A stretch of 59,401 bases of DNA, from positions 1-59,401 of the IMG/VR virus record IMGVR_UViG_3300037529_000001. One strand, written 5' to 3'. Shown piece after piece: positions 1,712 through 59,401 of the stretch. The number at the start of each line of letters is the position of its first letter. Position 1 is the stretch's first letter. Below the pieces are notes generated by a model. The model ran no database searches, was not told where the DNA came from, and saw only the letters and a list, made by a program, of their open reading frames with translations. This DNA is from a virus (Duplodnaviria > Caudoviricetes). Position numbers and translations under genes: made by a program.

Positions 1712-1797
1712 TGTAATAGGGAAATCCTAACGTGATTTAGGGATGTTAGGACACGCAGCTAGTGGGTTTAGGCTGCACCACAGACTTAAGGATGAAT

Positions 1798-3114
1798 ATG
1801 AAAATTGGTTATGGTAAGATCGGTCGCTCTATGCCACTCTCAATCGAGAAGTGTGGAACACTTGGCGGCGATGTTGAGATGATCCCGCCAATTAAGGAAC
1901 TTGCTCTTCGTCATCCAAATGATGAATTCATTCTTGTTGGTCGTAACACCGGTGAAAATCCTGTCGATGTTGGTCTTCCAAGCAATGTCATTAATCCTTG
2001 GACTGAGTGGGGACCGGAGCTTCGAAAGCAGATCAATAAGAATGCTTTGAATCATCCTAATCTTAATGTTGATGAACACATTAAGGTAGCTGAACTTATC
2101 GATGGCATTATTGGTAACACGTTTGAAGAACTAGACTCACTCCTCCTCTGGATCGGACAGCACGGAACATCTAATCGTCCTCTTCCTGGCATTAGAGTTC
2201 CTGGTCTCACAAAGCCACAGGATTGGTGCGCATACTACTCAGGTTTTCTAATGCGTGGTGCTAATCGTTTTAGAGATTCTGATCCATTCACACGTGAAGA
2301 AATCTATCTTAATGCTGATGCGCGTAACTATCTAAAGATGCGTGACCTGGCATGGCCGCTTGAACATCCAGTGCTGACGCAGTTTACATTTGAACACACA
2401 CAGCGATATGCGCGTGGTGATCGTAATGATCTATACTTTAATCATTTCAGTCACACGTCAGATGCCAAGATTGTAAGAGATCCTGACATCTGGGAAGCCA
2501 CTGTTTCAAATGTGTATTCACGTCTTGAGATTAATGGTCTTCAGCCAGGAACTCCATTTGGTGATCTCGTTTCATTCAACGGTGATTGGATTGGTCGAGA
2601 ATCATTCGGTTTGTTCATTAATGAAGCTGCAGTGAATGTCAATGACAAAGTTAAGCGTCTCACAGCACTCCGTGATTGGGTGCTTCCACTTAATCCGCAT
2701 TTCATTCACGGAACATGGTCTAAGGGATCTCAGGAAAAGCTTAATCGCACGATTACATCTGTTCCATGGGAAGAGTATTTCCCCAATCTACATTCAGTGA
2801 AATGCACGTTCACAACACCTTCCAGTGGGTCAGGTTACGCAACTACTAAACCATGGGAAGCATTTGCGGCAGGAACTGTTTGCTTCTTTCATCCAGATTA
2901 TGACACGCAGAATAACATTCTTGGTGATGCGCAGCCTGCACTTCGTGAATGGCTTCGCGTGAAGACTCCTGAAGAACTTGAGTCTCGTGTTAAGATGTTG
3001 TCAGTCGATCAGGATGCATGGACCTGGCTTGTGCATGAACAGCGTAATCACTTTGAAGATGCAATGCGCAATCTTACTTATATGAAGATGATTGAGGATC
3101 GGATTTACGGATGA
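1798..3114 (+). CDS. GT-B glycosyltransferase resembling T4 DNA beta-glucosyltransferase
   Basis: MKIGYGKIG start and C-terminal ATTKPWEAFAAGTVCFFHPDYDTQNNIL...EELESRVKML parallel the T4 BGT C-terminal region as recalled. Start placed at ATG1798 after AAGGA. Confidence 0.65.
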   Translation: MKIGYGKIGRSMPLSIEKCGTLGGDVEMIPPIKELALRHPNDEFILVGRNTGENPVDVGLPSNVINPWTEWGPELRKQINKNALNHPNLNVDEHIKVAELIDGIIGNTFEELDSLLLWIGQHGTSNRPLPGIRVPGLTKPQDWCAYYSGFLMRGANRFRDSDPFTREEIYLNADARNYLKMRDLAWPLEHPVLTQFTFEHTQRYARGDRNDLYFNHFSHTSDAKIVRDPDIWEATVSNVYSRLEINGLQPGTPFGDLVSFNGDWIGRESFGLFINEAAVNVNDKVKRLTALRDWVLPLNPHFIHGTWSKGSQEKLNRTITSVPWEEYFPNLHSVKCTFTTPSSGSGYATTKPWEAFAAGTVCFFHPDYDTQNNILGDAQPALREWLRVKTPEELESRVKMLSVDQDAWTWLVHEQRNHFEDAMRNLTYMKMIEDRIYG

Positions 3115-4217
3115 CACGTGTAGCACTTATCACCACAACAATCAATAACCCAACAAATTTGCTTGAATGGGCAAAGACAATGGATCCTGACAAGGACATC
3201 ATTGTTATTGCAGGCGATAAGAAGAGTCCACATGAGGATATTATAAACACATGTGAATTGATTGAAGAATCAACAGGTGTGCAAGCTACATATTTTCATC
3301 CAGATAATTTCATGACATGGGAAACAGATGAAACTATTGGATATAACTGCATCCAGCGACGTAATGTAGCTTTGCTCGAAGCACTAATCGCTCAGCCTGA
3401 AATTATTGTCACAGTGGATGATGATAATTATCCGACGCATCCTAATCAAATTGATCATTATTATGAAGAGTTGTGTAAGCCACTTTCACAAGAAGTCATT
3501 ACATCAGCCACTAATGGTTGGTACAATGTCGGTCTTACATATGAACCAAGTGTCATACATCGTGGATTTCCTATTGAGCACATTCACGATAGTCCAGCAA
3601 ATGTTATTACAAGTGTGCAACAGAACATTAAACTTGGCGTCACTACGTCATTTTGGCATGGTGATCCAGACATTAGTGCACTTGAGCGTATTTATACTAA
3701 CCGTATGGTTCATGCACATGAAATTAGAGATGATTTCATCACGCTTGATATTGGCACATGGTGCCCATTCAACTCACAGGCTACTGCATTCAGAGCTGAA
3801 TTTTCTCCACTCATGATGATGTGGCCAGGTGTTGGTCGATTTGATGACATTTGGGCAAGTTATGCGATGCGTGCGGTTATGGACTTTGTTAGTTTCTATG
3901 TGAGTTATGGTAAACCACATGTTCGCCAAGATCGCAATGAACATAATCTCATTCGTGATCTTAAGGATGAGATATTTGGGTATGAACACACACTAACTCT
4001 AACTAAATTGATGCGTGACATTGATTTTAAGAATGCATCATCTACACATTATAACATCATTACACTTGCTGAACAGCTTTACGCGCATATTGTGATGAAT
4101 TTTGATCCACTACTTCCTAAGACCCGATATGCGTTCAAGGCATGGACCGAAGATATGCGTACGCTTGCAAGTGACTTTGGTGTTAACTTCATGATCAAGA
4201 AGGATGATAATGAATAG
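3111..4217 (+). CDS. STELLO/RGP (GT75-like) glycosyltransferase or NDP-sugar mutase
   Basis: Motifs TTI, GDKKSP, RRNVALL, DDDN, HRGFP, PFNSQAT, RFDDIWASY; ATGA overlap with the upstream GT. Confidence 0.7.
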   Translation: MTRVALITTTINNPTNLLEWAKTMDPDKDIIVIAGDKKSPHEDIINTCELIEESTGVQATYFHPDNFMTWETDETIGYNCIQRRNVALLEALIAQPEIIVTVDDDNYPTHPNQIDHYYEELCKPLSQEVITSATNGWYNVGLTYEPSVIHRGFPIEHIHDSPANVITSVQQNIKLGVTTSFWHGDPDISALERIYTNRMVHAHEIRDDFITLDIGTWCPFNSQATAFRAEFSPLMMMWPGVGRFDDIWASYAMRAVMDFVSFYVSYGKPHVRQDRNEHNLIRDLKDEIFGYEHTLTLTKLMRDIDFKNASSTHYNIITLAEQLYAHIVMNFDPLLPKTRYAFKAWTEDMRTLASDFGVNFMIKKDDNE

Positions 4218-4668
4218 CGATATGCTTAAGCACATGCTCGATCTGCAAGAAGAATTGCAGGTTAAAGCATATGGTGAAAATCCTGGTGAGTTTGAATCTA
4301 ATGAAGAACGTATCCAGTTCATTAAAGATATGATTCTTGCACTCACCGATGAACTTCACGAAATGCTCGGTGAAGTTGGTTGGAAGCCTTGGGCAACAAG
4401 TGATCACATCAATGAAGATGCATTCAAGAACGAACTTATTGACGCATGGCACTTCTTGATGAATCTCATGCTTGTCGTGAATATGAGTGCTGAAGAGCTA
4501 TATGAACGATACATTGCAAAGCGTCAGAAGAACATCAAGCGTCAAGACAATGGATACGACGGTTTGAATAAGTGTCCTATTTGTAAGCGCGCTTACGATG
4601 ATGATGCTGTTGAATGCAATTATACGTATGATATGAATGGCACTCCCATGTATCGTTGTTTTATCTGA
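4204..4668 (+). CDS. dimeric dUTPase/dCTPase (T4 gp56-like, MazG superfamily)
   Basis: DELHEML..WKPW..ELIDAWHFLMN..KNIKRQ; C-terminal CxxC. Confidence 0.8.
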   Translation: MIMNSDMLKHMLDLQEELQVKAYGENPGEFESNEERIQFIKDMILALTDELHEMLGEVGWKPWATSDHINEDAFKNELIDAWHFLMNLMLVVNMSAEELYERYIAKRQKNIKRQDNGYDGLNKCPICKRAYDDDAVECNYTYDMNGTPMYRCFI

Positions 4669-8031: not shown

Positions 8032-9192
8032 GTGTCTACTGAAGCCACCGGATCCAAGACCAAGCCGACTCCCCGCAAGCGCGGCACCTCGACTCAGTCT
8101 TCGGCTGAAAAGGCGGCTGTGGTGGAGAACGTTGAGTCTACTGACATCGTCCCTGTGGATGAAGTCATCGTGGATGAGACTGCCTCCAGCACGACTGCCG
8201 ATGAGACTGAGATTCTCGAAGGAGAACTTATCTCTGTCCAGACGCAGCCGACTGGAATGCGTATGACTCTCGGTGCGAATGACAACAGGTCGACCATGTT
8301 CACTGAGCGCACTGCTCCGTGGATGAAACTTGGTCGACTCGTAGATGGGGTTCGTACTGCACGAGACGCTGCCATTCAGGGCGGTATTGATTTCGATGTG
8401 GTGAAGGCGCCTGCTGGATTCTTTTGGGAAGGACAGTGGGTGGAGTTGACTGACCGTAAGACCATCGTTCGAAAGGACACCGGTACTCCAATGAGTGTCG
8501 TGTCTGACGGATATCCGGTCTTGCAGTACAGTGAGGCTTTCAACTTCATGGACCAGATCAATCCTGAATACATTGCCGCTGGAGCTCTTAAGGGTGGCAA
8601 GCAGGGTTTCATGGTTGTGAAGACGCCTAATCACTTCGACGTCACTGTTCTTGGAGAAGACAAGCACGAGTTCTATGTGGTTCTTCGAACGTCACACGAT
8701 CTGACGCGCGCAGTTGAAATCATGATCATGCCTCTTCGAGGTAAGTGCATGAATCAGCTGACGCTCCGTTCTCTGACTCGTGGTGTTGAGCACCGTTGGT
8801 CGGTTCGACACACGACCACGATGAATGAGAAGCTCGAAGAGGCACAGCGTGCTATTCACAAGATGGGTGACTATGTATCAGCCTTCAAGGACATGACTGA
8901 GCGTCTTGCATTGGTCAATGTCAGTGAAGTTGGTGCACGAGCGCTGATGAAGCAGATTTTCCCGGATCGTCCAAGGACGCACGAGAAGATTGACCGCATC
9001 ATCAATATGTGGAACACGTCTGAGACCGTTGCATACCCTGGCACTGGGTGGGGACTCGTCAACGCTGTCGGTGAGTATTACGACTGGGAGCGTAGTGGAG
9101 GATCCGCTGAGTCGCGTTTCACTGCTGCTCTCCAGGGTCAGACACACACTGCCATCAATCAGGTAGCTGCTCGCGTTCTTGCGATGGCGTAA
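8032..9192 (+). CDS. DUF932 family protein with acidic N-terminal extension
   Basis: PW..LG, VSDGYPVLQYSEAF, AGALKGGK, SHD, CMNQL, RHT, TGWGLVNAVGEYYDW; GGAG RBS. Confidence 0.85.
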   Translation: MSTEATGSKTKPTPRKRGTSTQSSAEKAAVVENVESTDIVPVDEVIVDETASSTTADETEILEGELISVQTQPTGMRMTLGANDNRSTMFTERTAPWMKLGRLVDGVRTARDAAIQGGIDFDVVKAPAGFFWEGQWVELTDRKTIVRKDTGTPMSVVSDGYPVLQYSEAFNFMDQINPEYIAAGALKGGKQGFMVVKTPNHFDVTVLGEDKHEFYVVLRTSHDLTRAVEIMIMPLRGKCMNQLTLRSLTRGVEHRWSVRHTTTMNEKLEEAQRAIHKMGDYVSAFKDMTERLALVNVSEVGARALMKQIFPDRPRTHEKIDRIINMWNTSETVAYPGTGWGLVNAVGEYYDWERSGGSAESRFTAALQGQTHTAINQVAARVLAMA

Positions 9193-9243: not shown

Positions 9244-9771
9244 ATGATAGAGATAACGGATGTTGATCTTCCCCATGATCTCGTGCTTAAGGCAATTTCA
9301 CATGCTCGTGCAATTGCTATAAAGAACAGAAATACACACACTAATAATGTAATTCGTTGCGTCACAGGCAATGAGACAGTTATTAAAGCGCATATGGGTA
9401 ATGCGTCAGTGGTGAACGCAGAAACGATGCTTGGATGTTGTTTCTTCAAAGGATACACCAGAGGCATTTATCTTCGCCCTGGTGAGAGTAAACATAGTAC
9501 AGTGAAGACATATTGTCATGAACTGGCACATGCGTTTACTAATCCTGCTGTTCATCATGGCTATTCATGGCGTAGTCTCTATTTTCTATTTTGGGCTACT
9601 ATTCCACGAATGTTCGATATCTATGAGACAGAAACTGATTTCTATGATGAAGTTGTGGACACTCTTTATCGCTATGAGATTCGTGGTTTCACACAATATT
9701 CGCGTCATCTCAAAGCAATGATGAGGATGCGGGCATGGTACGTGGCGTTGGTAGAAAGTCAAAATTCATAG
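9244..9771 (+). CDS. HExxH zinc metalloprotease-like protein (SprT-like)
   Basis: CHELAH..HHGYSW; start moved to ATG9244 after AAGGA. Confidence 0.55.
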   Translation: MIEITDVDLPHDLVLKAISHARAIAIKNRNTHTNNVIRCVTGNETVIKAHMGNASVVNAETMLGCCFFKGYTRGIYLRPGESKHSTVKTYCHELAHAFTNPAVHHGYSWRSLYFLFWATIPRMFDIYETETDFYDEVVDTLYRYEIRGFTQYSRHLKAMMRMRAWYVALVESQNS

Positions 9772-9773
9772 TG

Positions 9774-10118
9774 ATGAGTGAAAACGATACTAAGTGGATG
9801 AAGCATGCATTGTGTGTTGGTGTTGAGCCTGAAGATTTCTTTCCACCAAATGTGGAAGATAAACGTCGTCCAATTCAAGTAACGCAATACATTGAAAAGG
9901 TTTGCGGTCTTTGCCCTGTTGCATCTAATTGTCTTGATTTTGCTATTCTTCATGAAATGCAAGGCATATGGGGCGGTACCACTGACTACACACGCGCTCA
10001 ACTCACAAAAAAGACAAATAAGCTTAAATGCCCTGGTTGCAGTGGATCTTCACTGTTCACAGAATACACAGGTGATGTTATTTGCAATTCCTGTGGATTG
10101 TCATGGAAGTCGCTCTAA
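9774..10118 (+). CDS. whiB: WhiB-family transcription factor with C-terminal Zn ribbon
   Basis: W...ALC..FFP..CGLCPV...CL..A..GIWGGTT; extra CPGC..CNSC. Confidence 0.9.
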   Translation: MSENDTKWMKHALCVGVEPEDFFPPNVEDKRRPIQVTQYIEKVCGLCPVASNCLDFAILHEMQGIWGGTTDYTRAQLTKKTNKLKCPGCSGSSLFTEYTGDVICNSCGLSWKSL

Positions 10119-10226: not shown

Positions 10227-11276
10227 TCAGGGATGCGTATTGATTGCTTCCATCCATGCATCGACCCAGAGGTGAGCACGTTTCTCATATGTGAACATTT
10301 CAGCAGTTTTCTTCACTGCCTCTGATTGTTCTTTATAAAATGATTCATCAGACATAAGACGTCGAATCTTTGAAACCCATTCGGATGGCTTCTTAGCAAG
10401 CAATCCACCGCCATATCTCTGTAGTCGAGTGTATTCATGGCGTGGTGATGCAACCCAAGGAATGCCAAGTGCTGAATATTCAAGTGGCTTAAGCCAACTC
10501 TTAGCCTTATTAAATTTAGTGTCAGCAAGAGGAGCAATTCCAACCTTAAGCTGATTCACTTCATTAGGCCATTGAGCCATTGGAACGACACCAGTATCTT
10601 CAACTTCATTAGGAAGTCGAAGCTTTTGTGCTACACCTTTTCCAGAACTAATCACCTTAAATGAAAAGCCTGATCGAGTGAGTTGTTCCACAGATGAGCC
10701 GAGAACGTCCAGATCATCTGGATGAGAATGCAAAGATCCAGCCCAACCAAAATGTGTACGTTCTGGAACAGGCAAGTCTAGAAAGCGTTGTGGTACACAA
10801 TTATAAAGAACTCGACCACGACCATGCGGTGCATACGATTGCATCAATGCATCAGTGGATGTTGTGACCATTGATGCATTCATGCATGCAATTTGCGCAT
10901 AACGCCAATTATGACCTGTGTTATCATTTTGTGGATGCATTGCATGAAATGCAGGATTTGCCGGATGAATACATGAAAGATCATCATCCATATCAACAAT
11001 AACTGGAACACCTTCATCTTCACGAAGTAGTTTCACTGCTTGATGAAGAATCTTGTGCGTTGGTCGTTGCAACACAATTGCTGATGCATCTGATGGATAA
11101 TTTACTTTAATGAGTTTATCACCGCGTACTTGACCGGACAGAGAGGTCTCCGGATTCCTCTCAGATGGATGAATAATCTTGACGTCTATTCCAAGCTTCT
11201 GAGCAATTTGCGCAGGCCAGATGATGCGATAGTGGCCACAACCAGAGACATCAGCCGGATAGACATAGATCGTCAT
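10227..11276 (-). CDS. GT-B (GT4-like) glycosyltransferase
   Basis: GCGHYRI, DMDDD, GWAGS..H..D, GIAPL...FN.AKS.LK.LEY.A.GIP. Confidence 0.85.
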   Translation of the reverse strand: MTIYVYPADVSGCGHYRIIWPAQIAQKLGIDVKIIHPSERNPETSLSGQVRGDKLIKVNYPSDASAIVLQRPTHKILHQAVKLLREDEGVPVIVDMDDDLSCIHPANPAFHAMHPQNDNTGHNWRYAQIACMNASMVTTSTDALMQSYAPHGRGRVLYNCVPQRFLDLPVPERTHFGWAGSLHSHPDDLDVLGSSVEQLTRSGFSFKVISSGKGVAQKLRLPNEVEDTGVVPMAQWPNEVNQLKVGIAPLADTKFNKAKSWLKPLEYSALGIPWVASPRHEYTRLQRYGGGLLAKKPSEWVSKIRRLMSDESFYKEQSEAVKKTAEMFTYEKRAHLWVDAWMEAINTHP

Positions 11277-12286
11277 AGCCACTCCGGATGCTTGAGAGTC
11301 CACTGCACAGTATTATGAACCGTTTCTTCAAACGAATACGGTGGAGTCCAACCATACAAACTCAACATACGTGTTCCATCAAGACCATATTTCAGATCAT
11401 GTCCGGGACGACTTGAGTGAAAATCATCCAATCCATATCTAAGTTCTTTACCCATATGATCAGCAATCATTTGAGCAAGTTCAAGATTATTAATTTCACG
11501 TTCACCGACAATATTAAAACGCATTGGTTCATTATTATATGGATAACGTGCAGTGCAATTGTATTGCATAATCGTAAGCCATGCATCAGCAAAATTACGC
11601 GCATGAATATAAAAGCGTGATCCAATGATATTTGTTCTAGTGTCAGCATGGACAATTACAATTTCATCGCGTTGAATTGCACGCATTACTTTTGCGAAAT
11701 ACTTTTCACTATCCTGCATCTCACCGAACAAGTTCATTGTGTTCGTGATGATCAATGGCACATCATATGTGCGCCAATATGAAATGGCAATAGCTTCTTG
11801 CGCAGCTTTACTTGCTGAATACGGGTTACTTGGAAGAATTGCGTCCCATTCCCTAGCCGGGAATTTAAGCATTGGCCCGTATATTTCATCTGTGCTCATT
11901 TGCAAGAACATCTTTAGATTAGGTAGTGTTCTTGCATATTCAAGCAAAGACAGCATTAGGTTCACATTATTTTGCACAAATGGAACAGGTGTCGCAATGC
12001 TGCGATCAACATGACTATCACTTGCAATGTTAAGAATATACTTAATGTCACCAAATTGTGCTGCTGTGACATTATCAATAGGTGTTGATAGATCGTGAAG
12101 AATAACATCAACACGATTAATCCACTCAGGATGATCATTAAATGCAGATGAAATACGCGCTGATTTACCGCGATTTCTAAATGTTACAGGACACACAATG
12201 TGAAAATCAGTATTCACAAGCAAATGACGTAGCATATGTGAACCGACAAAACCACCGGCTCCTGTGAGTAGGACTCTATCTACCAT
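11273..12286 (-). CDS. rmlB: dTDP-glucose 4,6-dehydratase-like SDR
   Basis: TGAGGFVGSH, ASDSHVDRSI, STDEIYG, PSNPYSASKAA, RPGHDLKY. Confidence 0.9.
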   Translation of the reverse strand: MVDRVLLTGAGGFVGSHMLRHLLVNTDFHIVCPVTFRNRGKSARISSAFNDHPEWINRVDVILHDLSTPIDNVTAAQFGDIKYILNIASDSHVDRSIATPVPFVQNNVNLMLSLLEYARTLPNLKMFLQMSTDEIYGPMLKFPAREWDAILPSNPYSASKAAQEAIAISYWRTYDVPLIITNTMNLFGEMQDSEKYFAKVMRAIQRDEIVIVHADTRTNIIGSRFYIHARNFADAWLTIMQYNCTARYPYNNEPMRFNIVGEREINNLELAQMIADHMGKELRYGLDDFHSSRPGHDLKYGLDGTRMLSLYGWTPPYSFEETVHNTVQWTLKHPEWL

Positions 12287-12855
12287 CTGTCACTCCTTCC
12301 TGAGGTGTTTCCACCGCAGTTATGCCAAATCCATGTGTTCTGTACCAAATGATATATCTTAGCACCAAGATCACGTATACCCAAAGCTAGACGTCGATCT
12401 TCACCAGTGCCGTGCGGATAATCTCTTAGTGTGTCAAATCCAACTTCCTGAGCAAGTTCAGTTCGCACTAGAACTGTGATTGTGGTTTCCACAGGATCAT
12501 CTGGATTCCAAGGCTTATCACGATTCAAAGGAAATGGATCAAATCCGCATGGTGAATCGAACCATGAATACACAAAGTCAGCTTCTTGTTCTTTTGCAGC
12601 ATTCATGAGTGCATATAGGTGATGCGAATGAAATTCATCATCATCATCAAGAAATGCAACCCAAGGCGTTGTCACACCATCAAGTGCACGTTGACGTGTG
12701 GCAGGTGCACCTTCTTTATTCACATCATATGAAATGTGAACTGCTTTAGGTCTTAGTGATTGACGCTCAATACTTGCAATAGCACGAGGTAGTGTTGTGC
12801 TAAATCGTGGAGGAATAGATGCCATTGCAATTGAAATATCATCAAAACTTACCAT
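12280..12855 (-). CDS. GT-A (GT2) glycosyltransferase
   Basis: RAIASI, WVAFLDDDDE, GED. Confidence 0.85.
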   Translation of the reverse strand: MVSFDDISIAMASIPPRFSTTLPRAIASIERQSLRPKAVHISYDVNKEGAPATRQRALDGVTTPWVAFLDDDDEFHSHHLYALMNAAKEQEADFVYSWFDSPCGFDPFPLNRDKPWNPDDPVETTITVLVRTELAQEVGFDTLRDYPHGTGEDRRLALGIRDLGAKIYHLVQNTWIWHNCGGNTSGRSDRW

Positions 12856-13628
12856 TTAGGTTCCCATAGTAGACTTCTATGAAAAATTGTTCCATTTCCA
12901 CCAGTTACACGATGTTTTGTGACAATATTATATTGTGCATTAGGTACAAGTCCTGTCACGTATCTAAACGTAGCGGCACCATCTTCAAGTCCAGGTGCAG
13001 CCAAACTATTTGTTACAAGCGCATAGTCAGTACTTGCAGCTTGGACAACAGCGCCTGCATCAATAGTACTTCCTTCTTTAAGTTCAGCACTGACATAAAT
13101 CGTATTAGTGGTATTAATGCGATAACCACTATGCCATGTGTACTTGCCGCTCCCAGATGGTGGGGCTGTAAAAGCAAAACCGCATACCGCAGCACCTGCA
13201 GTAAAAACTGTGTCAGTGAATGCAGTTATGTTTGTACCATTTTCATTAAATACCCAACTCATTGTTGGATCATTAACTTGAATCAAACCATTAAGTGTTA
13301 GAAATCCATTAACAGTAAGATTATTAAAAACCCACGGAGGTGAATCAGAATTAACATCAAAACGCCCAATGATGTATGCTCCAGATGGTGGAACAAACAA
13401 CACAAACACTCGTGTTGATCCTGGAATGATTCCAATAAGACTACTTGCTGCGATGGATTTCACATCACCATCAAGTATAACTTGTGTGCTAAAAATACTT
13501 TGAGTTGTGTTTACATCACCGGCTGTGGTAGCCTGATGAAGACTCCATGTAATTCCTTGACGTTTAGCTTCATCTACAAATGTTTGAAGACCAAGAGCAA
13601 TATATTCAGGATCATTTGAACTAAGCAT
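12849..13628 (-). CDS. minor tail protein
   Basis: End of tail module; beta-rich; N-terminal RVFVLFVPPSG OB-like segment. Confidence 0.6.
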   Translation of the reverse strand: MLSSNDPEYIALGLQTFVDEAKRQGITWSLHQATTAGDVNTTQSIFSTQVILDGDVKSIAASSLIGIIPGSTRVFVLFVPPSGAYIIGRFDVNSDSPPWVFNNLTVNGFLTLNGLIQVNDPTMSWVFNENGTNITAFTDTVFTAGAAVCGFAFTAPPSGSGKYTWHSGYRINTTNTIYVSAELKEGSTIDAGAVVQAASTDYALVTNSLAAPGLEDGAATFRYVTGLVPNAQYNIVTKHRVTGGNGTIFHRSLLWEPKW

Positions 13629-28705: not shown

Positions 28706-29251
28706 TTAACGTTTGACGCATTGTGCCCATGCATAAATATCGCCTGGGTTTGGATTATATGTTACTTCAAAGTGAGCAAAAAACTTACTCAATTGACGAC
28801 GCATTTCATCTGGATCAATGTTTTGATACCACTCACCTGGTGGCGGATCCATTTCACCAGATGCGCCATGTGGTCGCCGTCCGGTTGACGCACACGTGAT
28901 AAACAATATTTCTTCACCACCATTAGATAGTGCTTGAGAACATGTACGAATGACTCCACGCCAATCTTCTACATGCTCAAATAGTTCAGTGGTGATAATC
29001 ATATCATATAGCTTAAAGTTCTCTGGCCAATCGAGTGTGGCATCTCTAACAATGTCAACACCTGGTCCTTCAACTATGTCAAGACCATCCCATTGCGCAT
29101 GTGGAAGAAGTCCTCGAATACTTCCATTAATGTCTCGACCACCGAGATCAAGTACATGCATTAGTTTATTAAGTTCAAGGCCTGAATCATTCAACATTCT
29201 AAAAAGACCATTATATGCTTCAAGATGCATTAGTGCGGTGCCTTTCCCCAC
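28706..29251 (-). CDS. class I SAM-dependent methyltransferase
   Basis: VLDLGGRDING, GLDI.EGPGVD, TELFEH. Confidence 0.8.
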   Translation of the reverse strand: MGKGTALMHLEAYNGLFRMLNDSGLELNKLMHVLDLGGRDINGSIRGLLPHAQWDGLDIVEGPGVDIVRDATLDWPENFKLYDMIITTELFEHVEDWRGVIRTCSQALSNGGEEILFITCASTGRRPHGASGEMDPPPGEWYQNIDPDEMRRQLSKFFAHFEVTYNPNPGDIYAWAQCVKR

Positions 29252-29898
29252 TTTTTAATGAATGTTTCTCTATCTCTGCTTGCTTGTTCTTGTAGTTCAA
29301 TACGTGCATTCGTGGATCCATTAGGCGCACGATGCTCTACTGGAATGCCAGGTACAAGCAAAGATCCACCCATAAGTCGTGCGCGCCAATCCAGATCATC
29401 ATCTGAATACCACCATTTCATGGTTTCATCTAGCTTTAGATTTGATTCACCACGAAGCATATATGCATATCCGGTAATGCGTTGTCTAAGATCAATAGGT
29501 TTAGCTTCTGTGTGAAGAACCATTTGATTTCCACCACATTGATCCGAGTAAGCAAGAACTGCAGTGGTTTGTCGCATAGTTTGTGCGATGCGATCAACCC
29601 ACCCTTCAGGTACAATAACATCAGAATTGAATATTGCCACGTTCCATGCAAGAAGATGATCTGCAATTTCTTTTGCACATTTAATGCCTATATTCCACAA
29701 TTGTGAAATATTCGGTGGATCAAGATCAATTCGGATGACATTAACATTATCATGTTCTAAATAAGATGAAAATGGTGGATCAGATAGATTATCAATAATG
29801 ATAGTGTGTGATACTTGATCTTTAATTGATGCATAACATTCATCCAACATTGCATGACGATCACGCGTTGGTATGATGGCAATCGTAGGAATTATCAT
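29230..29898 (-). CDS. GT-A (GT2) glycosyltransferase
   Basis: IIPTRDR, IIIDNLS, WNIG, FNSD, WWYSDDDL. Confidence 0.85.
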   Translation of the reverse strand: MIIPTIAIIPTRDRHAMLDECYASIKDQVSHTIIIDNLSDPPFSSYLEHDNVNVIRIDLDPPNISQLWNIGIKCAKEIADHLLAWNVAIFNSDVIVPEGWVDRIAQTMRQTTAVLAYSDQCGGNQMVLHTEAKPIDLRQRITGYAYMLRGESNLKLDETMKWWYSDDDLDWRARLMGGSLLVPGIPVEHRAPNGSTNARIELQEQASRDRETFIKKWGKAPH

Positions 29899-47912: not shown

Positions 47913-48107
47913 AGTTCCTCAATATGTTCTTGGACTAGTTGTAATTATATATGGTGATTAAGATCAATGTAACTGTCAACAACAGTCAGACGACGTTATT
48001 GATATTGTAAAACGTAACGCGAACAACTTTGTCACATGTGCGTTTCATCAAGAACAAGAGTAGTGTGAAAACTATGCATCATATGAAATCTTTTGAAAGA
48101 AGCTTAC

Positions 48108-50513
48108 ATGACACATATTCTGCACGATGTGACGCGTTCCACGGGACACCAATATATTGAACTTGGGTGGCATGTTATGCTACTTTCCCAAGACAATTCA
48201 CGTGGTAAGCTTCCCCCAAAGAATTGTTCACGGTGTGATTGGAAAAGTCCAACCGCTGAACGACACGACCCTGCATCGTGTACTTGTCTTTTGTGCCATG
48301 GTTTTCACGCAGCCACTGCACAACATGATCGTTTTGATCAAATGTGTAGTGCTTTTCCGAATGGTACTCTTGCCATTCGAACAGGACAGCCCTCACGACT
48401 TCTCATTGTTGATGCTGAAGCTGTAAGTAAGCATCCAGATGAACCGACAGGTTTGCATGTTCTGGAGCAATGGGAATCATTTGTAGGTGGATGGTCTCTA
48501 CCTAAAACACTTACAGCACGTAGTGTATCAGGTGGTGTGCATCTTTATTATGCAATGCCGCCTGAGATGCAAATAACATCTGGAAGATATCTTCCGAATG
48601 TTGACATTAAAGCTGATCCCGGCTATGTCGGTGCAGTTGTTGAAGGATCACATCGCACGTGGATTGATCCGACTGTCCCTGTAGCTCCATTGTCCGGTGA
48701 TATGTTGACATGGCTTCTTAAAAGGAAGACACGTCAACTGCAACAAGGCAATTCACTGAATGCACCAGATGGGTACAACTATGATGAATTCATAGCTGAA
48801 GGTTGTCCTGATGGTTTTCGTGATTTTTTCTTCAATGATCTGATTTATCGTTTGCGTAAGCGAGGCGTTTCACGACGACGTCTTGAAGAAACTGTCTTCA
48901 CTGAATGGCAGAAATGTGCACAACCTCCTGATGCACGTTATGAAATGCCATGGGAAGATGTTTTCTATAAACTTGAGCGTGTTTGGAATACGGTTACACC
49001 GGAAATTCAAACACCAACAATGACACAACGTGATTGGGCTGCGCAACAGAGTCAATCACGCAATGAGCCTGAAGAAACTCAGACTATCACAGGTCGCGAT
49101 GTTTATTCTGATCCGCCCACTGGAACAGGAATTGTCTTCAATGATGTTAGGCCATGGGATAATGAACATGACACTGACACAGGTAATGGACGACGATTCG
49201 CAAGATTGTTTTCAGGACGAACTGTTTATGTTCCTGCAGAAGGTAAATGGTATCTCTGGGATGGATCACGTTGGGTTATCGATAAACTCAATTATGTGAT
49301 GGAACTAACTCTTCACGTCATTGATGATATTCGTGATTTTGCTATGGCACAAACAGATCCGGATGTTCAGCAACGATGGGCACGACATGCACGAAATACA
49401 GAAAGTTATAATGCACGTCAAAGAATGCTATCTGCTGCAGCCACATTGTTGACAATGACAGTGGATGTTGAGAAACTCGACAATGATCCATGGTCTCTTG
49501 TTGTTAAGAATGGTACACTTGATCTCAACACAGGACATTTGCGAGAATCTGATCCACTTGATTTCAACACAAAATCAGCTGATGTAGTGTATGATCCAGA
49601 TGCTGATTGTCCTGAATGGCGTTCACATATTAATAAGGTTTGTGAAGGTAATGAAGAGTTGATGGCATATCTACAGCGTGCATGTGGATATACATTGACG
49701 GGTGTCATTTCAGAACAGTCATTCTTTTTCTTGCTTGGTTCAGGTTCAAACGGTAAGAATGTTTTTATTGACACCATTGCTGGACTGATGGGTGAGTACG
49801 CAAAAATTGCTGACCCAAACCTTATTACTGCGCGCAATGATGCTCATACATCAATGGTTGCTGAATTGCGTGGTGTTCGTCTTGCAATGGCGAGTGAAAC
49901 AGATTCAATGCATTTCATTAATGATCAACGCATTAAAGATCTTACGGGTTCACCACGATTGACCGGCCGTAAGATGTATGGGAATAACATTGATTTCAAT
50001 AACTCAACTAAGCTATGGGTTCTTGGAAACAATCATCCACGCATTAAAGACTCATCACACGGTATTTGGCGACGCATTAAGATTGTGCCATTCAATGCAA
50101 CATTTACCAGTGATACACGCATCGCAAATTATGAAAGCATTCTTGCTGCAGAGCGATCAGGTATCTTGAACTGGATGATTGAAGGATTGCGCCAATGGCA
50201 TGCATTCAATAATCTTATGGAACCTAAAATCATTCGTGATGCAGTGGATGAATATCGTGAAGAAGAAGATCAGGTTGGAGCATTTGCTCGAGTGCATCTT
50301 CAGATTTGTGATGATGGCAATGAAACATATGAAATAGGAAATGCCATTTATCTCGAGTATCAAATGTGGTGCGCAATGAATGGTGAGAAACCATTGTCTA
50401 ATATCATGTTTGGTCGTAAACTACGTCTCATTCCCGGTGTAGGGAAAACAGAAGTTAAGAAGATTAACTCTAAACCCATTCGTATCATTCACGGGATTAA
50501 ATTGATTCGATGA
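48108..50513 (+). CDS. bifunctional primase-polymerase fused to D5/P4-like SF3 helicase
   Basis: CHGFHAAT, IRTG, VDAE, SGG.HLYY; DTGNGRRF, NGTLDL, GSGSNGKN, GIWRRI. Confidence 0.9.
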   Translation: MTHILHDVTRSTGHQYIELGWHVMLLSQDNSRGKLPPKNCSRCDWKSPTAERHDPASCTCLLCHGFHAATAQHDRFDQMCSAFPNGTLAIRTGQPSRLLIVDAEAVSKHPDEPTGLHVLEQWESFVGGWSLPKTLTARSVSGGVHLYYAMPPEMQITSGRYLPNVDIKADPGYVGAVVEGSHRTWIDPTVPVAPLSGDMLTWLLKRKTRQLQQGNSLNAPDGYNYDEFIAEGCPDGFRDFFFNDLIYRLRKRGVSRRRLEETVFTEWQKCAQPPDARYEMPWEDVFYKLERVWNTVTPEIQTPTMTQRDWAAQQSQSRNEPEETQTITGRDVYSDPPTGTGIVFNDVRPWDNEHDTDTGNGRRFARLFSGRTVYVPAEGKWYLWDGSRWVIDKLNYVMELTLHVIDDIRDFAMAQTDPDVQQRWARHARNTESYNARQRMLSAAATLLTMTVDVEKLDNDPWSLVVKNGTLDLNTGHLRESDPLDFNTKSADVVYDPDADCPEWRSHINKVCEGNEELMAYLQRACGYTLTGVISEQSFFFLLGSGSNGKNVFIDTIAGLMGEYAKIADPNLITARNDAHTSMVAELRGVRLAMASETDSMHFINDQRIKDLTGSPRLTGRKMYGNNIDFNNSTKLWVLGNNHPRIKDSSHGIWRRIKIVPFNATFTSDTRIANYESILAAERSGILNWMIEGLRQWHAFNNLMEPKIIRDAVDEYREEEDQVGAFARVHLQICDDGNETYEIGNAIYLEYQMWCAMNGEKPLSNIMFGRKLRLIPGVGKTEVKKINSKPIRIIHGIKLIR

Positions 50514-52387: not shown

Positions 52388-52936
52388 ATGCTCATTATCA
52401 TTGAAGGTGCTGATTGCACCGGCAAAACAACACTTGCTAAAAAACTGATCAAAACGATTGGTGAAGAGCATGTTTCACTTCTAAGTAAGGGTCCACCTGC
52501 ACTTAGTGATCCAGTAATGGAGTACATTTGGCCACTATCAGGTTACATCCCGAATACAAAACAACATTTCATTTGTGATCGTTGGCACATTGGTGAAATG
52601 ATTTATCCTAATATCTTTCACCGTAGATCTATAATGTCAATACGTGATTTCATGGTAATTGATAATGCAATACGTGCACTTGGTGCATTGATTGTTTATC
52701 TCGAACCACCAATTAACATGGTACAAGAACATTTTACTAAACGCGGTGATAAGTTCATTAAAGATATCAAAACACTTAATGATTCATATTTTGATTTTCA
52801 TAGGTTTGTGACAAACAAATACAATCTTAGATATGATCCATATATTGTTAGACTTAGTAATGTAGAGTTTAATGAAGATCTTATAAATGCTATTATTAAT
52901 GATGCTAAGAAAAATGAACAAGGTGCTGTTATCTAA
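52388..52936 (+). CDS. dNMP (thymidylate-kinase-like) kinase
   Basis: IIEGADCTGKTT, CDRWHIGE..Y, RGD. Confidence 0.85.
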   Translation: MLIIIEGADCTGKTTLAKKLIKTIGEEHVSLLSKGPPALSDPVMEYIWPLSGYIPNTKQHFICDRWHIGEMIYPNIFHRRSIMSIRDFMVIDNAIRALGALIVYLEPPINMVQEHFTKRGDKFIKDIKTLNDSYFDFHRFVTNKYNLRYDPYIVRLSNVEFNEDLINAIINDAKKNEQGAVI

Positions 52937-53778
52937 TGCATGTTATTGAAATTGAAAATGGCCGTGATGGTTATGTGAACATCCTTGAGCATGTGTGGGA
53001 TCACGGCGTAAAACGCGTACCTCGTGGTATGGCCACAATTGATGCTGGACCCACAACCATCATTATGCGAGATGCACATAACGCATTGCCACTTGGCACA
53101 GGTCGTGGTGTCAATCCTAAGATTGCTGCGATCGAAGCAATGCAGTTGATTGCGGGTGTTTCAGTTCCCGATATGGTTGTGCGTGCATCACCCAACTTTG
53201 AGAAGTATCGTGAACCTGATGGTAGTTTCTATGGCGCTTATGGTATTCGCATTGGAAAGCAAACAGAGCAAATCATCCGTAAGTTGAAAGAAGATCGTAA
53301 TACACGACAAGCTGTGATCACTCTATGGAATCCACTCTTTGATAATTCCCCAGGCATGCACGACTACCCATGCACTGTCGCGCTACATTTTGATATTCGT
53401 TACAGTAAGTTGAATATGAATATTGTGATGCGATCTAATGATGCGTGGCTCGGAACACCATATGATCTGTTCCAGTTTACGCAATTGCAACTTACTGTTG
53501 CGCGTGCACTTTGCATTAATCCAGGAACATACAGGCACACTGCGTGGTCATTGCATCTATATGAGAATAACTTTGACGCAGTTGAAGAAATGATCTCTAA
53601 TGACATTTCACCAGGAAATACGTTTCAGCCGGATGGTATTGGTGTAATTGAAGATTCATGGGATAAGATTGTTTCAATGGGTTGTCAACTTATCACAGGC
53701 AAATTTGACGGTGTTGAGTTTAAAGATTTGACTGATAGTGAGCAGTGGTATGACAACCAATTCAAATCCATTCGATAG
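52936..53778 (+). CDS. thymidylate synthase homologue with dCMP-type Asp (candidate dCMP hydroxymethylase/methylase)
   Basis: TRQA, catalytic PC, MRSND..G.PYD (Asp at the TS Asn177 position), SLHLY. Confidence 0.85.
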   Translation: MHVIEIENGRDGYVNILEHVWDHGVKRVPRGMATIDAGPTTIIMRDAHNALPLGTGRGVNPKIAAIEAMQLIAGVSVPDMVVRASPNFEKYREPDGSFYGAYGIRIGKQTEQIIRKLKEDRNTRQAVITLWNPLFDNSPGMHDYPCTVALHFDIRYSKLNMNIVMRSNDAWLGTPYDLFQFTQLQLTVARALCINPGTYRHTAWSLHLYENNFDAVEEMISNDISPGNTFQPDGIGVIEDSWDKIVSMGCQLITGKFDGVEFKDLTDSEQWYDNQFKSIR

Positions 53779-54250
53779 AAAAGATCGTCCCACATGGGAC
53801 AATACGTGGTTTGATGTTGCTAACATCATTTCGCAGCGCAGTCTATGCAAAACGCGTGTTGGTGCTGTGATTGTTACAGAAGATAATCGACCTGTTTCTG
53901 TAGGATATAATGGCCCACCTAAAGGTTTTTATCATCACGACTACGATTGTCGTGTTTGGTGTAAGCGTGCTGTAGATCCTACACTTTCATATGATGAATG
54001 TCCATCACTTCATGCAGAACAAAATGCATTGATGACAGCTGATAAATCAGCATTCAGTGATGGATATATTTATGTGACAAGTCATGTTTGTGGAACATGC
54101 GCTAAGTTGATCGCTAATTCAGGTCTTCGTATCGTGTTTGTAAGTGACACGAGTGAAGAAAACTATAACAAACGAAACTCAGGACATTGGTATAATTTTC
54201 TTAAAGAATGTGGTGTTTGGGTTGTTCAGACGGGAATGATGCATGAGTGA
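53750..54250 (+). CDS. dCMP deaminase
   Basis: RS.C..VGAVI, GYNG.P, HAEQNAL, CGTC. Confidence 0.9.
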   Translation: MTTNSNPFDRKDRPTWDNTWFDVANIISQRSLCKTRVGAVIVTEDNRPVSVGYNGPPKGFYHHDYDCRVWCKRAVDPTLSYDECPSLHAEQNALMTADKSAFSDGYIYVTSHVCGTCAKLIANSGLRIVFVSDTSEENYNKRNSGHWYNFLKECGVWVVQTGMMHE

Positions 54251-56105
54251 TACACATTATAAGGCCGCAACTGAGCAAGATATCGATGTAATTACTCAAG
54301 TTGCACAAGTTCGTGAACGTGTTAACAATCTTGAAAATGTAAAAGTTCATCTAATGGACAGTGTTGACCGCGCATTTGAAATGATGCGGTGGCTCTCTAA
54401 TAAAAAGACTATTGCGGTTGACACCGAAACAACAGGTCTTGACACACAGCGTGATACTGTTCGACTTGTTCAAATCGGTTCAAGTAATAATGGTTGGGCT
54501 ATTCCTTGGGATCAGTGGAATGGTGTTTTTGATGAAGTAGTGCGTCGTTTTGATGGACACTTCATTATGCACAATGCTAAGTTTGATTATGCAATGCTAA
54601 AGCGTATGGGTGTTGAAGTACCAACTCATCGCATTCGTGATACACGCATTATGCATCACATTCTCGATCCAGTGAAATCAACTGCACTTAAAAGCATTGC
54701 ATCACGACTTGTTGATCCACGTGCAGCAAATCCACAAAAAGAACTAGATGAAGCACTGGGTAAAAAGGGCGGATGGACATGGGCAACCATTCCCATTGAC
54801 TTTACGCCTTATTGGTCATATGGCGCACTTGACACAGTTTTGACGCATCGTGTCTATGATGCACTATGGCCACGTATTGAAGCTGAAGCGCTTAAAGCTT
54901 TTGAAATTGAAAATGATGTTCAGTGGATCATTCAACGTATGGAAGATTATGGTGTCTTCATTGACCATGATTATGCAATAAAATATGAACAACAATTTCT
55001 TAAATACTGCGCTAATGTTGATGCTTGGTGCATGAATGAATATGGGATCAAGCCAGGTTCAAATAGAGACGTCGTACGCATCCTTCAGGCGGATGGTATT
55101 GATTTTACGAAGGCGACTGCCAGAGGCGCCATCGCACTTGATAAGGAGGTTCTAGCCGGTATTGATCATCCACTGGCTGAAGCCATTCTGAATCGACGTC
55201 AACTCCAGAAACTTGCATCAACATATCTTAGACACTATATTCATGAAGTTGATGAGAACAATCTCATTCACCCGAGTATTAACACACTCGGTGCACGTAC
55301 ATCACGTATGAGCATGAGCAATCCTAATTTTCAGAATCTTCCACGGAAGAGTGAGAAGAATAAATCTGCTGAGATCATTCGCAATTGTGTGACCACACGT
55401 TATGATCGTGATGGTCTACTTCTAATGTGTGACTTTGATCAGATCGAAATGCGCGGTATGGCTCATCTTGCTCAGGATCAAGGTCTCATTGATGCATTCA
55501 ATGGTCCAGATGATTTCTTTGTTACTTTGGCACGATCCATCTACCGTGATGATACTATTGTAAAATCTGACCCACGACGTCAGATCACGAAGAATGCTGG
55601 CTATGCTAAGATTTATGGCGCTGGCATTGCAAAGTTTGCCGTCACTGCTGGTGTAAGTGAGCAGCAAGCACGTGAAGTTATGACAAGTTTTGATACGCTT
55701 TTTCCAAATGTTCCACGTTTCCAAAAGCGTATTCAGAATGAAGCAATGCAATCACGTAGTGAAACAGATGATTGTGGCTTTGTTCGATGCTCACTCACAG
55801 GCCGTTACCACATGGCAGATGTCGGTAAAGAATATGCTCTTGTCAATTACTTGACACAAGGCATGGCTGCACAGTTGTTTAAGATCAAGCTCATTGAATT
55901 GAGTAATGCAGGACTTGACAAGTACATGATGCTGCCAGTGCATGATGAAATTATTCTTGATGTACCTCGTAATGAAGAACAATATGTTGTTAATGTTCTT
56001 AATGACATTATGAATGATAATGATCTATTGTCTGTTCCGGTCACTGCAGGAATTTCATCTGGAATTAGATGGGGAGAAAAGCAGGACTATGAGTACACTT
56101 CGTGA
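54243..56105 (+). CDS. polA: family A DNA polymerase with 3'-5' exonuclease
   Basis: DTETTG, HNAKFD, Y..LD; DFDQIEMR, R...K...Y...YG, VHDE. Confidence 0.95.
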   Translation: MSDTHYKAATEQDIDVITQVAQVRERVNNLENVKVHLMDSVDRAFEMMRWLSNKKTIAVDTETTGLDTQRDTVRLVQIGSSNNGWAIPWDQWNGVFDEVVRRFDGHFIMHNAKFDYAMLKRMGVEVPTHRIRDTRIMHHILDPVKSTALKSIASRLVDPRAANPQKELDEALGKKGGWTWATIPIDFTPYWSYGALDTVLTHRVYDALWPRIEAEALKAFEIENDVQWIIQRMEDYGVFIDHDYAIKYEQQFLKYCANVDAWCMNEYGIKPGSNRDVVRILQADGIDFTKATARGAIALDKEVLAGIDHPLAEAILNRRQLQKLASTYLRHYIHEVDENNLIHPSINTLGARTSRMSMSNPNFQNLPRKSEKNKSAEIIRNCVTTRYDRDGLLLMCDFDQIEMRGMAHLAQDQGLIDAFNGPDDFFVTLARSIYRDDTIVKSDPRRQITKNAGYAKIYGAGIAKFAVTAGVSEQQAREVMTSFDTLFPNVPRFQKRIQNEAMQSRSETDDCGFVRCSLTGRYHMADVGKEYALVNYLTQGMAAQLFKIKLIELSNAGLDKYMMLPVHDEIILDVPRNEEQYVVNVLNDIMNDNDLLSVPVTAGISSGIRWGEKQDYEYTS

Positions 56106-58694: not shown

Positions 58695-59401
58695 ATGGGC
58701 GTAGAGCGGCTAAAACCATCAACCCCTAGTCGACTACAGGGGCCAAAACATCCATATTTCAATGAACATGTTCGTTATTTCTCAAATTCAGAGATCCAGA
58801 CCTTTAAAGATTGCCGTCGTAAGTGGTGGCTTTCATACTATCGTGGTCTTACACCAAAAGAGCATAAGTTTCTAGGACCACTGGCCATTGGTGGTCGCAT
58901 TCATCGTGCTCTTCAGGATTGGTACGTTCCTATCACGCAGTGGCGTCTAGATCCACGTGATTCCATTGAACTTCACATTGAGGGTGATCTAGCAACAGTA
59001 ATAAAAGTTTATGGTGATGAACCACCTGAAAATTTTATGAAACAATTTTATAAAGAAGCTGATCTTGAACGAATTATGCTCGATGGTTATATGGATTGGC
59101 TTGAAGAAACGGGTGCTGATGAACCGTACCAGATCATAGCACCTGAAGAATATGTAGAAATGCCATGGTCTGCAGAACGATTTGATGATCGTGTAGCAAT
59201 GCTCATTGGTCGTCTTGACGTACGTATTCGTCATCTACATTCTGGTATGATGTTCTTTATGGATCATAAGACACTTGCCAGCATTGACACACCTTTGCTT
59301 GTTAGTGATGAACAAATGCTTATGTACACACTATTGCTTAAAAGTGTCGTAGGTGATACCGCAGGCGCAATCTATAATATGTTGAAGAAAGTTCGTAGAT
59401 C
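58695..59401 (+). CDS. Cas4-like/PD-(D/E)XK exonuclease, N-terminal part (not in ORF track)
   Basis: SNSEIQTFKDCRRKWW, G.RIH.AL, GRLD, DHKT, QMLMY; runs off the window end. Confidence 0.85.
   Translation, partial: MGVERLKPSTPSRLQGPKHPYFNEHVRYFSNSEIQTFKDCRRKWWLSYYRGLTPKEHKFLGPLAIGGRIHRALQDWYVPITQWRLDPRDSIELHIEGDLATVIKVYGDEPPENFMKQFYKEADLERIMLDGYMDWLEETGADEPYQIIAPEEYVEMPWSAERFDDRVAMLIGRLDVRIRHLHSGMMFFMDHKTLASIDTPLLVSDEQMLMYTLLLKSVVGDTAGAIYNMLKKVRR

Follow-up and report, generated by a model that had tools for sequence, protein, structure and literature searches.

The locus analyzed here raises the question of which nucleotide is the substrate of a phage homologue of thymidylate synthase (TS), and what is made of it. 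The gene lies in the IMG/VR viral record IMGVR_UViG_3300037529_000001, which was analyzed in its entirety (59,401 bp, classed as linear, with a CheckV completeness estimate of 78%; hereafter the window). A first-pass annotation had noticed that the encoded protein carries an aspartate where enzymes specific for deoxyuridine monophosphate (dUMP) have an asparagine, and had proposed 5-hydroxymethyl-, 5-methyl-, or 5-hydroxy-deoxycytidine monophosphate (dCMP) as its product. Sequence, predicted structure, and gene context together indicate that the protein is probably a folate-dependent dCMP 5-hydroxymethylase, whose product would be 5-hydroxymethyl-dCMP (5hm-dCMP).

The residues of the active site carry most of this argument. 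We aligned the protein with MAFFT, in a set of 20 sequences and with its relatives. The reference enzymes were taken from public records and comprised Escherichia coli ThyA (from NC_000913), RB69 Td, T4 gp42, an Aeromonas T4-like dCMP hydroxymethylase (dCH), the RB69 5-hydroxy-dCMP synthase, the Xp12 dCMP methylase, and the dUMP hydroxymethylases of PhiW-14 and of an SPO1-like phage (phi18). The relatives scored were the best 120 of 579 database proteins with E-values (E) ≤ 1e-10. At positions 143, 146, 147, 167, 169, and 177 the numbering of the TS homologue coincides with that of E. coli. The Asp177 of its 'PYD' triplet (codon GAT, 53464-53466) aligns with E. coli N177 and with the aspartate of T4 gp42 (T4 Asp179). 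It is present in 120/120 of the listed relatives and is hence no chance substitution or sequencing error, but a fixed trait of the family, which bears out the first-pass annotation on this point. The catalytic Cys146 of the 'PC' motif (T4 Cys148) is invariant in the 20-sequence alignment and in all 120 relatives. The local sequence is D-Y-P-C, with Asp143 three residues before the cysteine, and Asp143, Thr147, Ser167, and Asp169 are each present in every one of these relatives. The same holds for Arg126, which makes with Ser167 a pair of the deoxyribose type. The other key residues of the protein are Glu58, Tyr94, Arg166, His207, and Tyr209. Seven positions (143, 146, 147, 167, 168, 169, and 177) are identical to T4 gp42, and Asp143, Cys146, Thr147, Ser167, Asp169, and Asp177 are identical to the Aeromonas enzyme as well.

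Previous works tell how these positions relate to substrate and product. The change N177D leads to a preference for dCMP (PMC13326640), a preference also attached to Asp177 in PMC8670742, and a role of this aspartate in cytosine specificity is described in PMC6400193. An acidic residue at position 143 accompanies hydroxymethyl products (PMC13326640). Its equivalent in T4 dCH, Asp145, stands three residues before the cysteine, is described as the hydroxymethylase signature, and holds the substrate water; the D145N variant yields no 5hm-dCMP (PMC6400193, in part). The change D169N marks the flavin-dependent 5-hydroxy-dCMP synthases (PMC13326640). Preference for deoxyribo- or ribonucleotides is set by Ser versus Ala176 and Arg versus Lys133, and the Ala176 and Lys133 of MilA favour CMP (PMC5175136, in part). 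Finally, positions 177 and 147 are the two TS positions most associated with modification in metaviromes (PMC8670742, in part).

The characterized enzymes in the alignment served as controls. At positions 143, 147, 169, and 177, respectively, ThyA and RB69 Td have L, H, D, and N; the Xp12 methylase has N, P, D, and D; the RB69 5-hydroxy-dCMP synthase has E, T, N, and D; and the dUMP hydroxymethylases of PhiW-14 and the SPO1-like phage have D, N, D, and N. They match their published behaviour in the very alignment in which the TS homologue was read, which gives some trust in the mapping of its residues. Of the three products put forward in the first-pass annotation, 5hm-dCMP is the one that best fits Asp143 and Asp169. 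The methyl product, made by an enzyme with Asn143 in Xp12, and the hydroxy product, for which the change D169N is missing, fit less well.

The predicted structure points in the same direction. The best match of the protein in the PDB by sequence is MilA (E 1.2e-16), the CMP 5-hydroxymethylase of mildiomycin biosynthesis in Streptomyces rimofaciens. The AlphaFold2 model has a mean predicted local distance difference test (pLDDT) score of 93.3, and its best structural match is again MilA (Z 28.6, root-mean-square deviation (rmsd) 2.5 Å over 264 residues, 25-26% identity, aligned to the last residue), followed by the HY126 dCMP hydroxylase (Z 23.1) and by canonical TS (about 20-21). T4 dCH is not among the 50 structural matches listed for the model, from which we conclude nothing. 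In the alignment, the C-terminal 60 residues are unlike the TS tail, which closes over the active site of TS for hydride transfer, and they superpose on MilA up to residue 280, while the TS rows end at about 271. Identity to any reference enzyme is only about 19-27%, and about 19% for T4 gp42. Judged by sequence and model, the TS homologue belongs to a MilA-like branch, apart from T4 gp42, with the Ser and Arg of the deoxy type and the same active-site solution.

The TS gene stands in a compact run of genes that also encodes a kinase, a deaminase, and a family A DNA polymerase (PolA; Table 1). The span of the first-pass annotation (52388-54250) takes in three ORFs of this run, those of the kinase, the TS homologue, and the deaminase. 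The stop codon of the kinase gene overlaps the TS start (ATGA), the open reading frames of TS and deaminase overlap by 41 nt, and those of deaminase and PolA by 8 nt. The deaminase matches the human dCMP deaminase (E 4.3e-13) and T4 Cd (E 5.7e-12) in the PDB. The kinase has weak Thymidylate_kin and dNK matches below the Pfam cut-off and a PDB match to SPbeta YorR (2axp, E 4.1e-8). A primase-helicase gene with Prim-Pol, D5_N, and DUF5906 domains (48093-50513) heads the replication module.

Table 1. Positions of the genes and of the motif discussed in the text, with the matches that describe them.
Feature	Positions	Strand	Matches and remarks
GT-B glycosyltransferase, candidate DNA (5-hydroxymethylcytosine) glycosyltransferase	1762-3114	+	fold like T4 beta-glucosyltransferase
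GT75-family nucleoside diphosphate (NDP)-pyranose mutase homologue	3111-4217	+	PF03214 RGP E 2e-6; PDB MtdL 7xpr/7yua E 3.4e-29
All-alpha dUTPase_2 family NTP pyrophosphatase, homologue of T4 gp56 dCTPase/dUTPase	4204-4668	+	PF08761 E 6e-15
C5-cytosine DNA methyltransferase-family protein, 537 aa	4681-6294	+	PF00145 E 5.7e-18; M.HaeIII E 9.3e-11
WhiB-like regulator	9735-10118		PHROG match; after the endolysin gene
P-loop nucleotide kinase, 182 aa, predicted to phosphorylate a modified dNMP	52388-52936	+	PHROG 761 thymidylate kinase E 3.3e-12
TS-family enzyme, predicted dCMP 5-hydroxymethylase, 280 aa	52936-53778	+	PF00303 Thymidylat_synt E 5.8e-25, 88.4 bits (cut-off 24.3)
Motif RSNDAWLGTPYDLFQF of the TS homologue, residues 166-181	53431-53478	+	holds Ser167, Asp169, and the specificity residue Asp177
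dCMP deaminase-family zinc deaminase, 170 aa	53738-54250	+	PF00383 E 2.3e-15; HAE and C..C motifs
Family A DNA polymerase with 3'-5' exonuclease domain	54243-56105	+	PF00476 E 7.7e-63; PF01612 E 6e-19

This arrangement is conserved. In a scan of viral contigs, the single protein as query gave no confirmed relative and an alignment query gave 390 in IMG/VR; the best 80 of these were taken as related loci and searched with the window proteins by tblastn. All matches were on the same strand and in the order of the window. In 79 of the 80 loci the next gene after TS is that of the deaminase, and PolA is present in as many (79/80), followed by the SNF2 helicase (77), the PD-(D/E)XK nuclease and Sak4 (72 each), and the single-stranded DNA-binding protein SSB (67). 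The kinase itself was matched in 39 loci (tblastn E ≤ 1e-5), and 70 have a Walker A ORF that terminates where TS begins. Upstream of TS in the other 10 there is an ORF without Walker A (six loci), no ORF (three), or no room (one). The Walker A ORFs of the related loci extend for about 340 aa from the motif to their end. The closest named genome by the TS protein (42% identity), the lake-derived 'Actinomycetia phage DSL-LC01', has the same order of kinase, TS, deaminase, and PolA genes. Its kinase has 331 aa, against 182 aa in the window (52388-52936; L001 5009-6004). Alignment is confined to the N-terminal kinase domain (30% identity), so that the relatives carry an extra C-terminal domain. 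A search at near identity of the DNA at 52388-56105 against GenBank phages gave no match.

A further gene of the T4 pathway lies near the other end of the window. The gp56-like pyrophosphatase shares 30% identity with T4 gp56 over 143 columns (BLASTP, E 1e-17). The 32 loci (of 80) whose contigs measure at least about 46 kb were followed into their full records, 30 of which have the gp56-like gene, including all eight that are at least 90% complete. As to thymidylate, the window has a single PF00303 match and no PF02511 match, i.e., no second TS or ThyX, in a record that is 78% complete, so that their absence is unproven. Apparently, then, the phage itself encodes no enzyme that forms dTMP, which would give the deaminase a job like that of T4 Cd, namely to provide the host TS with dUMP.

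The active-site signature, the fold, the order of the genes, and their co-occurrence are observations; from them we infer the enzymatic steps that follow, as well as the modified base in the virion DNA. The gp56-like pyrophosphatase would hydrolyze dCTP (and dUTP) to the monophosphate, both depleting dCTP and supplying dCMP. Cys146 of the TS homologue would then attack C6 of dCMP, with the methylene group coming from methylenetetrahydrofolate; Asp177 would read and protonate N3 of the cytosine; and Asp143 would hold a water in place for hydration of the exocyclic methylene, which replaces hydride transfer, to give 5hm-dCMP. The translationally coupled kinase would produce 5hm-dCDP and the host NDP kinase the triphosphate, which the adjacent PolA would incorporate in place of dC. 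Meanwhile, the deaminase would divert part of the dCMP to dUMP. In the group of phages of about 60 kb, the GT-B enzyme may finally glycosylate 5-hydroxymethylcytosine (5hmC) in DNA, perhaps with an NDP-furanose made by the GT75 homologue as donor. The first-pass annotation had already proposed a TS homologue directed at dCMP, with the coupled kinase phosphorylating its product and the adjacent polymerase incorporating it, and sequence, structural model, and context support this proposal. It had also offered two roles for the deaminase, to feed dUMP or to act on the modified base, and either is possible.

The case for the last step starts from the GT-B gene. Its product, which in the database version starts 12 codons later and has 438 aa, has no match in Pfam, PHROG, or NCBIfam; it has 586 relatives, and the 120 listed are at least 53% identical. 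The AlphaFold2 model (pLDDT 87.5) has a GT-B fold, and the first six ranks in Foldseek are all T4 beta-glucosyltransferase (BGT; E 3.9e-10 to 1.3e-8). VIA-align gives Z 22.9 and rmsd 3.6 Å over 315 residues for the comparison with T4 BGT, the runners-up being BshA (Z 19.8), T4 alpha-glucosyltransferase (17.6), and the HY126 phage glycosyltransferase (17.4). Since GT-B enzymes generally score high, we take the likeness of the model to BGT as a lead and not as proof. According to a preprint, GT-B enzymes like T4 BGT occur in metaviromes mainly with TS-type, pre-replicative pathways (bioRxiv 10.1101/2023.12.21.572611).

The neighbouring GT75 gene suggests which sugar might be transferred. In the HMMER alignment its product has identical counterparts of MtdL D111 (DDD), R159 (RGFP), D195 (GDPD), R257, D260, and H287 (RNEH), and MtdL Asp87 is without an identical counterpart. 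The roles of the MtdL residues, including those of the DXD Asp111 and of the nucleophile Arg159, have been described (PMC9937993). The BGT-like gene is present in nine of the 32 full records and the GT75 gene in six, all six among those nine and always adjoining it; GT75 is absent from all 23 records that lack the BGT-like gene. This association suggests that the mutase feeds the transferase with an NDP-furanose, and the pair is a hint of furanosylated 5hmC. Phage sugar mutases, as well as modified cytosines that bear furanosyl sugars, are known already from RB69, DLP3, and RL38JI. We found no GT75-type mutase in the literature on DNA modification, of which our coverage was limited. We would tentatively extend the pathway as follows: the phages of about 60 kb replace cytosine by 5hmC and then add a furanose by means of the BGT-like enzyme and the (Mn-dependent) GT75 mutase, a hypermodification not yet described, with the C5-cytosine methyltransferase (C5-MTase) homologue doing something other than the usual methylation of cytosines in phage DNA. 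In this complete form the scenario is possible, though we rather doubt it.

Several observations weigh against a dCMP 5-hydroxymethylase that serves cytosine replacement. The first concern the active site. Ser94 of T4 dCH is the hydrogen-bond partner of Asp145, and this position is Ser or Thr in the reported enzymes of this type (PMC6400193, in part). It is Gly in the TS homologue and in all 120 listed relatives, and likewise in the PhiW-14 dUMP hydroxymethylase. Arg127 is replaced by Gln in the TS homologue and in 112 of the 120. Others concern its descent. In a maximum-likelihood tree of 25 sequences, among which MilA was not included, gp42 groups with ThyA and Xp12 and the family of the TS homologue lies elsewhere (deep support 48/50), nearer to the dUMP hydroxymethylases, with weak support and long branches. 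Because the family stands apart from T4 gp42, its function is assigned from a few residues and not from orthology. The rest come from the neighbourhood: the near-invariant adjacency of TS and deaminase genes could indicate that the deaminase has the product of TS as its substrate, and a PF00145 protein is encoded in 27 of the 32 full related records, close to the gp56-like gene. If cytosine were fully replaced by 5hmC, such a C5-MTase would have no substrate.

The C5-MTase gene of the window directly follows the gp56-like gene. Its product and 20 relatives all keep the catalytic Cys, the Glu, and the R.R motif (21/21), and all share atypical motifs, PPCSG for PCQ and FE[CS]VQ for ENV. It is possible that cytosine replacement is partial, that the enzyme has other target DNA, or that it performs a different chemistry. 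No TET/5mYOX partner was matched by Pfam or PHROG among the scanned ORFs, a scan that leaves out many small ORFs at 34-48 kb. A further explanation is that the TS homologue makes 5hm-dCMP and the deaminase converts it to 5hm-dUMP, such that thymine is replaced by 5-hydroxymethyluracil (5hmU), possibly glycosylated, and cytosine stays unmodified and free for the C5-MTase. The adjoining TS and deaminase genes (79/80 loci) and the widespread C5-MTase with intact catalytic motifs, which implies unmodified cytosine in some DNA, would both find a place in it, and some TS-linked phage deaminases do act on C5-modified cytosine nucleotides (bioRxiv 10.1101/2024.12.05.627091). However, that study obtained 5hmdU with only 7 of the 90 TS-linked deaminases, and each of these seven is paired with a TS predicted to make 5-methyl-dCMP. 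The known 5hmU phages (PhiW-14, SPO1-like) directly use a dUMP hydroxymethylase with Asn177, no function that excludes dTTP was identified in the window phage, and the class of TS with Asp177 and a deaminase came from cytosine-modified DNA fractions (PMC8670742, in part; bioRxiv 10.1101/2024.12.05.627091). Thus, we consider the replacement of thymine improbable and retain 5hm-dCMP as the precursor of a modified cytosine.

Equally unlikely, in our view, is a dCMP methyltransferase of the Xp12 type, which would make 5-methyl-dCMP for DNA with 5-methylcytosine (5mC), or for dTMP via a deaminase that prefers 5-methyl-dCMP, or both. Asp177 alone turns TS into a dCMP methylase (cited in PMC8670742), and 5-methyl-dCMP was the product of five out of seven TS homologues with a link to 5mC-selective deaminases (bioRxiv 10.1101/2024.12.05.627091). 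The TS homologue does share Asp177 with the Xp12 enzyme, the single characterized methylase compared, but not its non-acidic residue at 143: Asp143 is as in all aligned hydroxymethylases, whereas Xp12 has Asn and ThyA has Leu, and the replacement of this very aspartate by Asn in T4 (D145N) abolishes hydroxymethylation (PMC6400193, in part). In addition, Thr147 contrasts with the Pro of Xp12, the best structural match is a hydroxymethylase (MilA), and the BGT-like glycosyltransferase of the module needs a hydroxyl acceptor.

Less probable by far is a flavin-dependent 5-hydroxy-dCMP synthase of the RB69/DLP3/HY126 type, with the sugar attached directly to 5-hydroxycytosine (5hoC). Asp177 with an acidic residue at 143 is also found in these synthases, the HY126 dCMP hydroxylase comes second among the structural families (Z 23.1), and 5hoC carries furanose sugars (arabinofuranose, Araf) in RB69 and DLP3. 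Yet the diagnostic D169N is missing, since the TS homologue and all 120 listed relatives keep the Asp where the RB69 enzyme has Asn, and MilA scores about 5 Z units above the hydroxylase. Finally, it is very unlikely that the protein is an ordinary TS (dUMP to dTMP), as the database names of its relatives ('thymidylate synthase') would have it, or a MilA-type CMP hydroxymethylase unrelated to DNA, as its closest solved structure might suggest, given that Asp, Asp, and Thr replace Asn177, Leu143, and His147, that all NCBIfam TS equivalogs score far below their cut-offs (at best 71.3 bits against 327), that in the HMMER alignment to MilA its Ser167 and Arg126 are in the deoxy state opposite the Ala176 and Lys133 typical of the ribonucleotide enzymes MilA and BcmA, and that the gene lies within a phage replication operon.

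The structural module of the window is of the siphovirus type, with PHROG matches to terminase, portal, major head, major tail, and tape measure proteins. Together with the WhiB-like gene and a G+C content of about 40-48%, this fits phages of low-GC Actinobacteria, and the host is probably a member of the freshwater Actinobacteria. We found no link between dCMP hydroxymethylases and freshwater actinophages in the literature, within a limited coverage, and a term search of the description of DSL-LC01 (PMC10611076) did not return 'thymidylate', 'deaminase', or 'hydroxymethyl'. Like the WhiB-like gene, a DUF932 gene (8032-9192) comes after the endolysin gene.

The ends of the record split a PD-(D/E)XK exonuclease gene (58695-59399 and 3-290). 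Its N-terminal piece corresponds to positions 8-210 of PHROG 1218 and its C-terminal piece to positions 306-360; the two are out of frame across the junction, and about 60-70 codons are apparently missing. The record would hence represent an almost complete genome in permuted form, with its break inside this gene. On the minus strand, a sugar gene cluster adjoining the tail genes (10227-13628) encodes a GT1-like glycosyltransferase, an NDP-sugar 4,6-dehydratase/epimerase (dTDP-glucose dehydratase model E 3.9e-55, below the cut-off), a GT2 glycosyltransferase, and an unknown protein of 259 aa. It may serve virion or cell-surface glycosylation, or the supply of sugar for DNA. Genes for an S-adenosylmethionine (SAM)-methyltransferase-like protein and a GT2-like glycosyltransferase (28706-29898, minus strand) lie amid the head-morphogenesis genes.

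If the TS homologue is a dCMP 5-hydroxymethylase, a large and abundant group of uncultured phages, with 390 relatives in IMG/VR and 579 database proteins, would practice T4-style cytosine replacement by a pathway built from a separate, MilA-like branch of TS. This would affect restriction digests, amplification-free sequencing, defence by CRISPR and restriction, and recovery in metagenomes. The family would also be a natural example of the switch from Ala/Lys to Ser/Arg between CMP and dCMP hydroxymethylases, and the BGT-like enzyme with its GT75 mutase could be a source of new DNA-glycosylating enzymes. The conserved C5-MTase poses a concrete puzzle on how complete the replacement of cytosine is.

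The gene pattern as such is already known from T4 and described for metaviromes. The more novel elements lie outside the region covered by the first-pass annotation: the BGT-like transferase without a family, the GT75 mutase, and the conserved atypical C5-MTase. With T4, the window shares the seven active-site positions of gp42. The accompanying genes follow a common logic as well: where gp42 has gp56, gp1, Cd, and BGT as pathway partners, the window has the gp56 homologue (30% identity), a kinase for dNMPs, a deaminase for dCMP, and a protein with a BGT-like fold. It differs in that the TS homologue is only about 19% identical to gp42, stands apart from it in the tree, has Gly in place of T4 Ser94, and has a longer, MilA-like C-terminal region. 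It also differs in its YorR/Tmk-like kinase, its probably actinobacterial host, its siphovirus-like virion, and the presence of the GT75 mutase and C5-MTase. MilA is the best match in both sequence and structure and has in common with the TS homologue the Asp before the Cys, the Thr after it, and the cytosine-specific Asp. However, its Ala176 and Lys133 contrast with Ser and Arg here, and it serves to make an antibiotic, whereas the TS homologue belongs to a phage replication module.

A neighbourhood of TS, deaminase, and DNA_pol_A, with a TS predicted to form 5hmdC or 5mdC, is typical of cytosine-modified metavirome contigs (bioRxiv 10.1101/2024.12.05.627091). The MetaGPA contigs resemble the window in their neighbourhood of Thymidylat_synt, dCMP_cyt_deam_1/MafB19-deam, DNA_pol_A_exo1, and DNA_pol_A, as well as in positions 177 and 147, which differ from canonical TS (PMC8670742, in part). 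By their descriptions the two are nevertheless set apart: the tested deaminase-linked TS made 5-methyl-dCMP, whereas that of the window has the hydroxymethylase Asp143. RB69, DLP3, and RL38JI are similar in that their DNA glycosylation draws on a TS homologue that carries Asp177 together with an acidic residue 143, and in that phage enzymes supply furanose donors. Their synthases, however, have D169N and use flavin and O2, while Asp169 is kept here, and the mutase of RL38JI is a UDP-galactopyranose mutase of the flavin adenine dinucleotide (FAD) type, whereas that of the window belongs to GT75.

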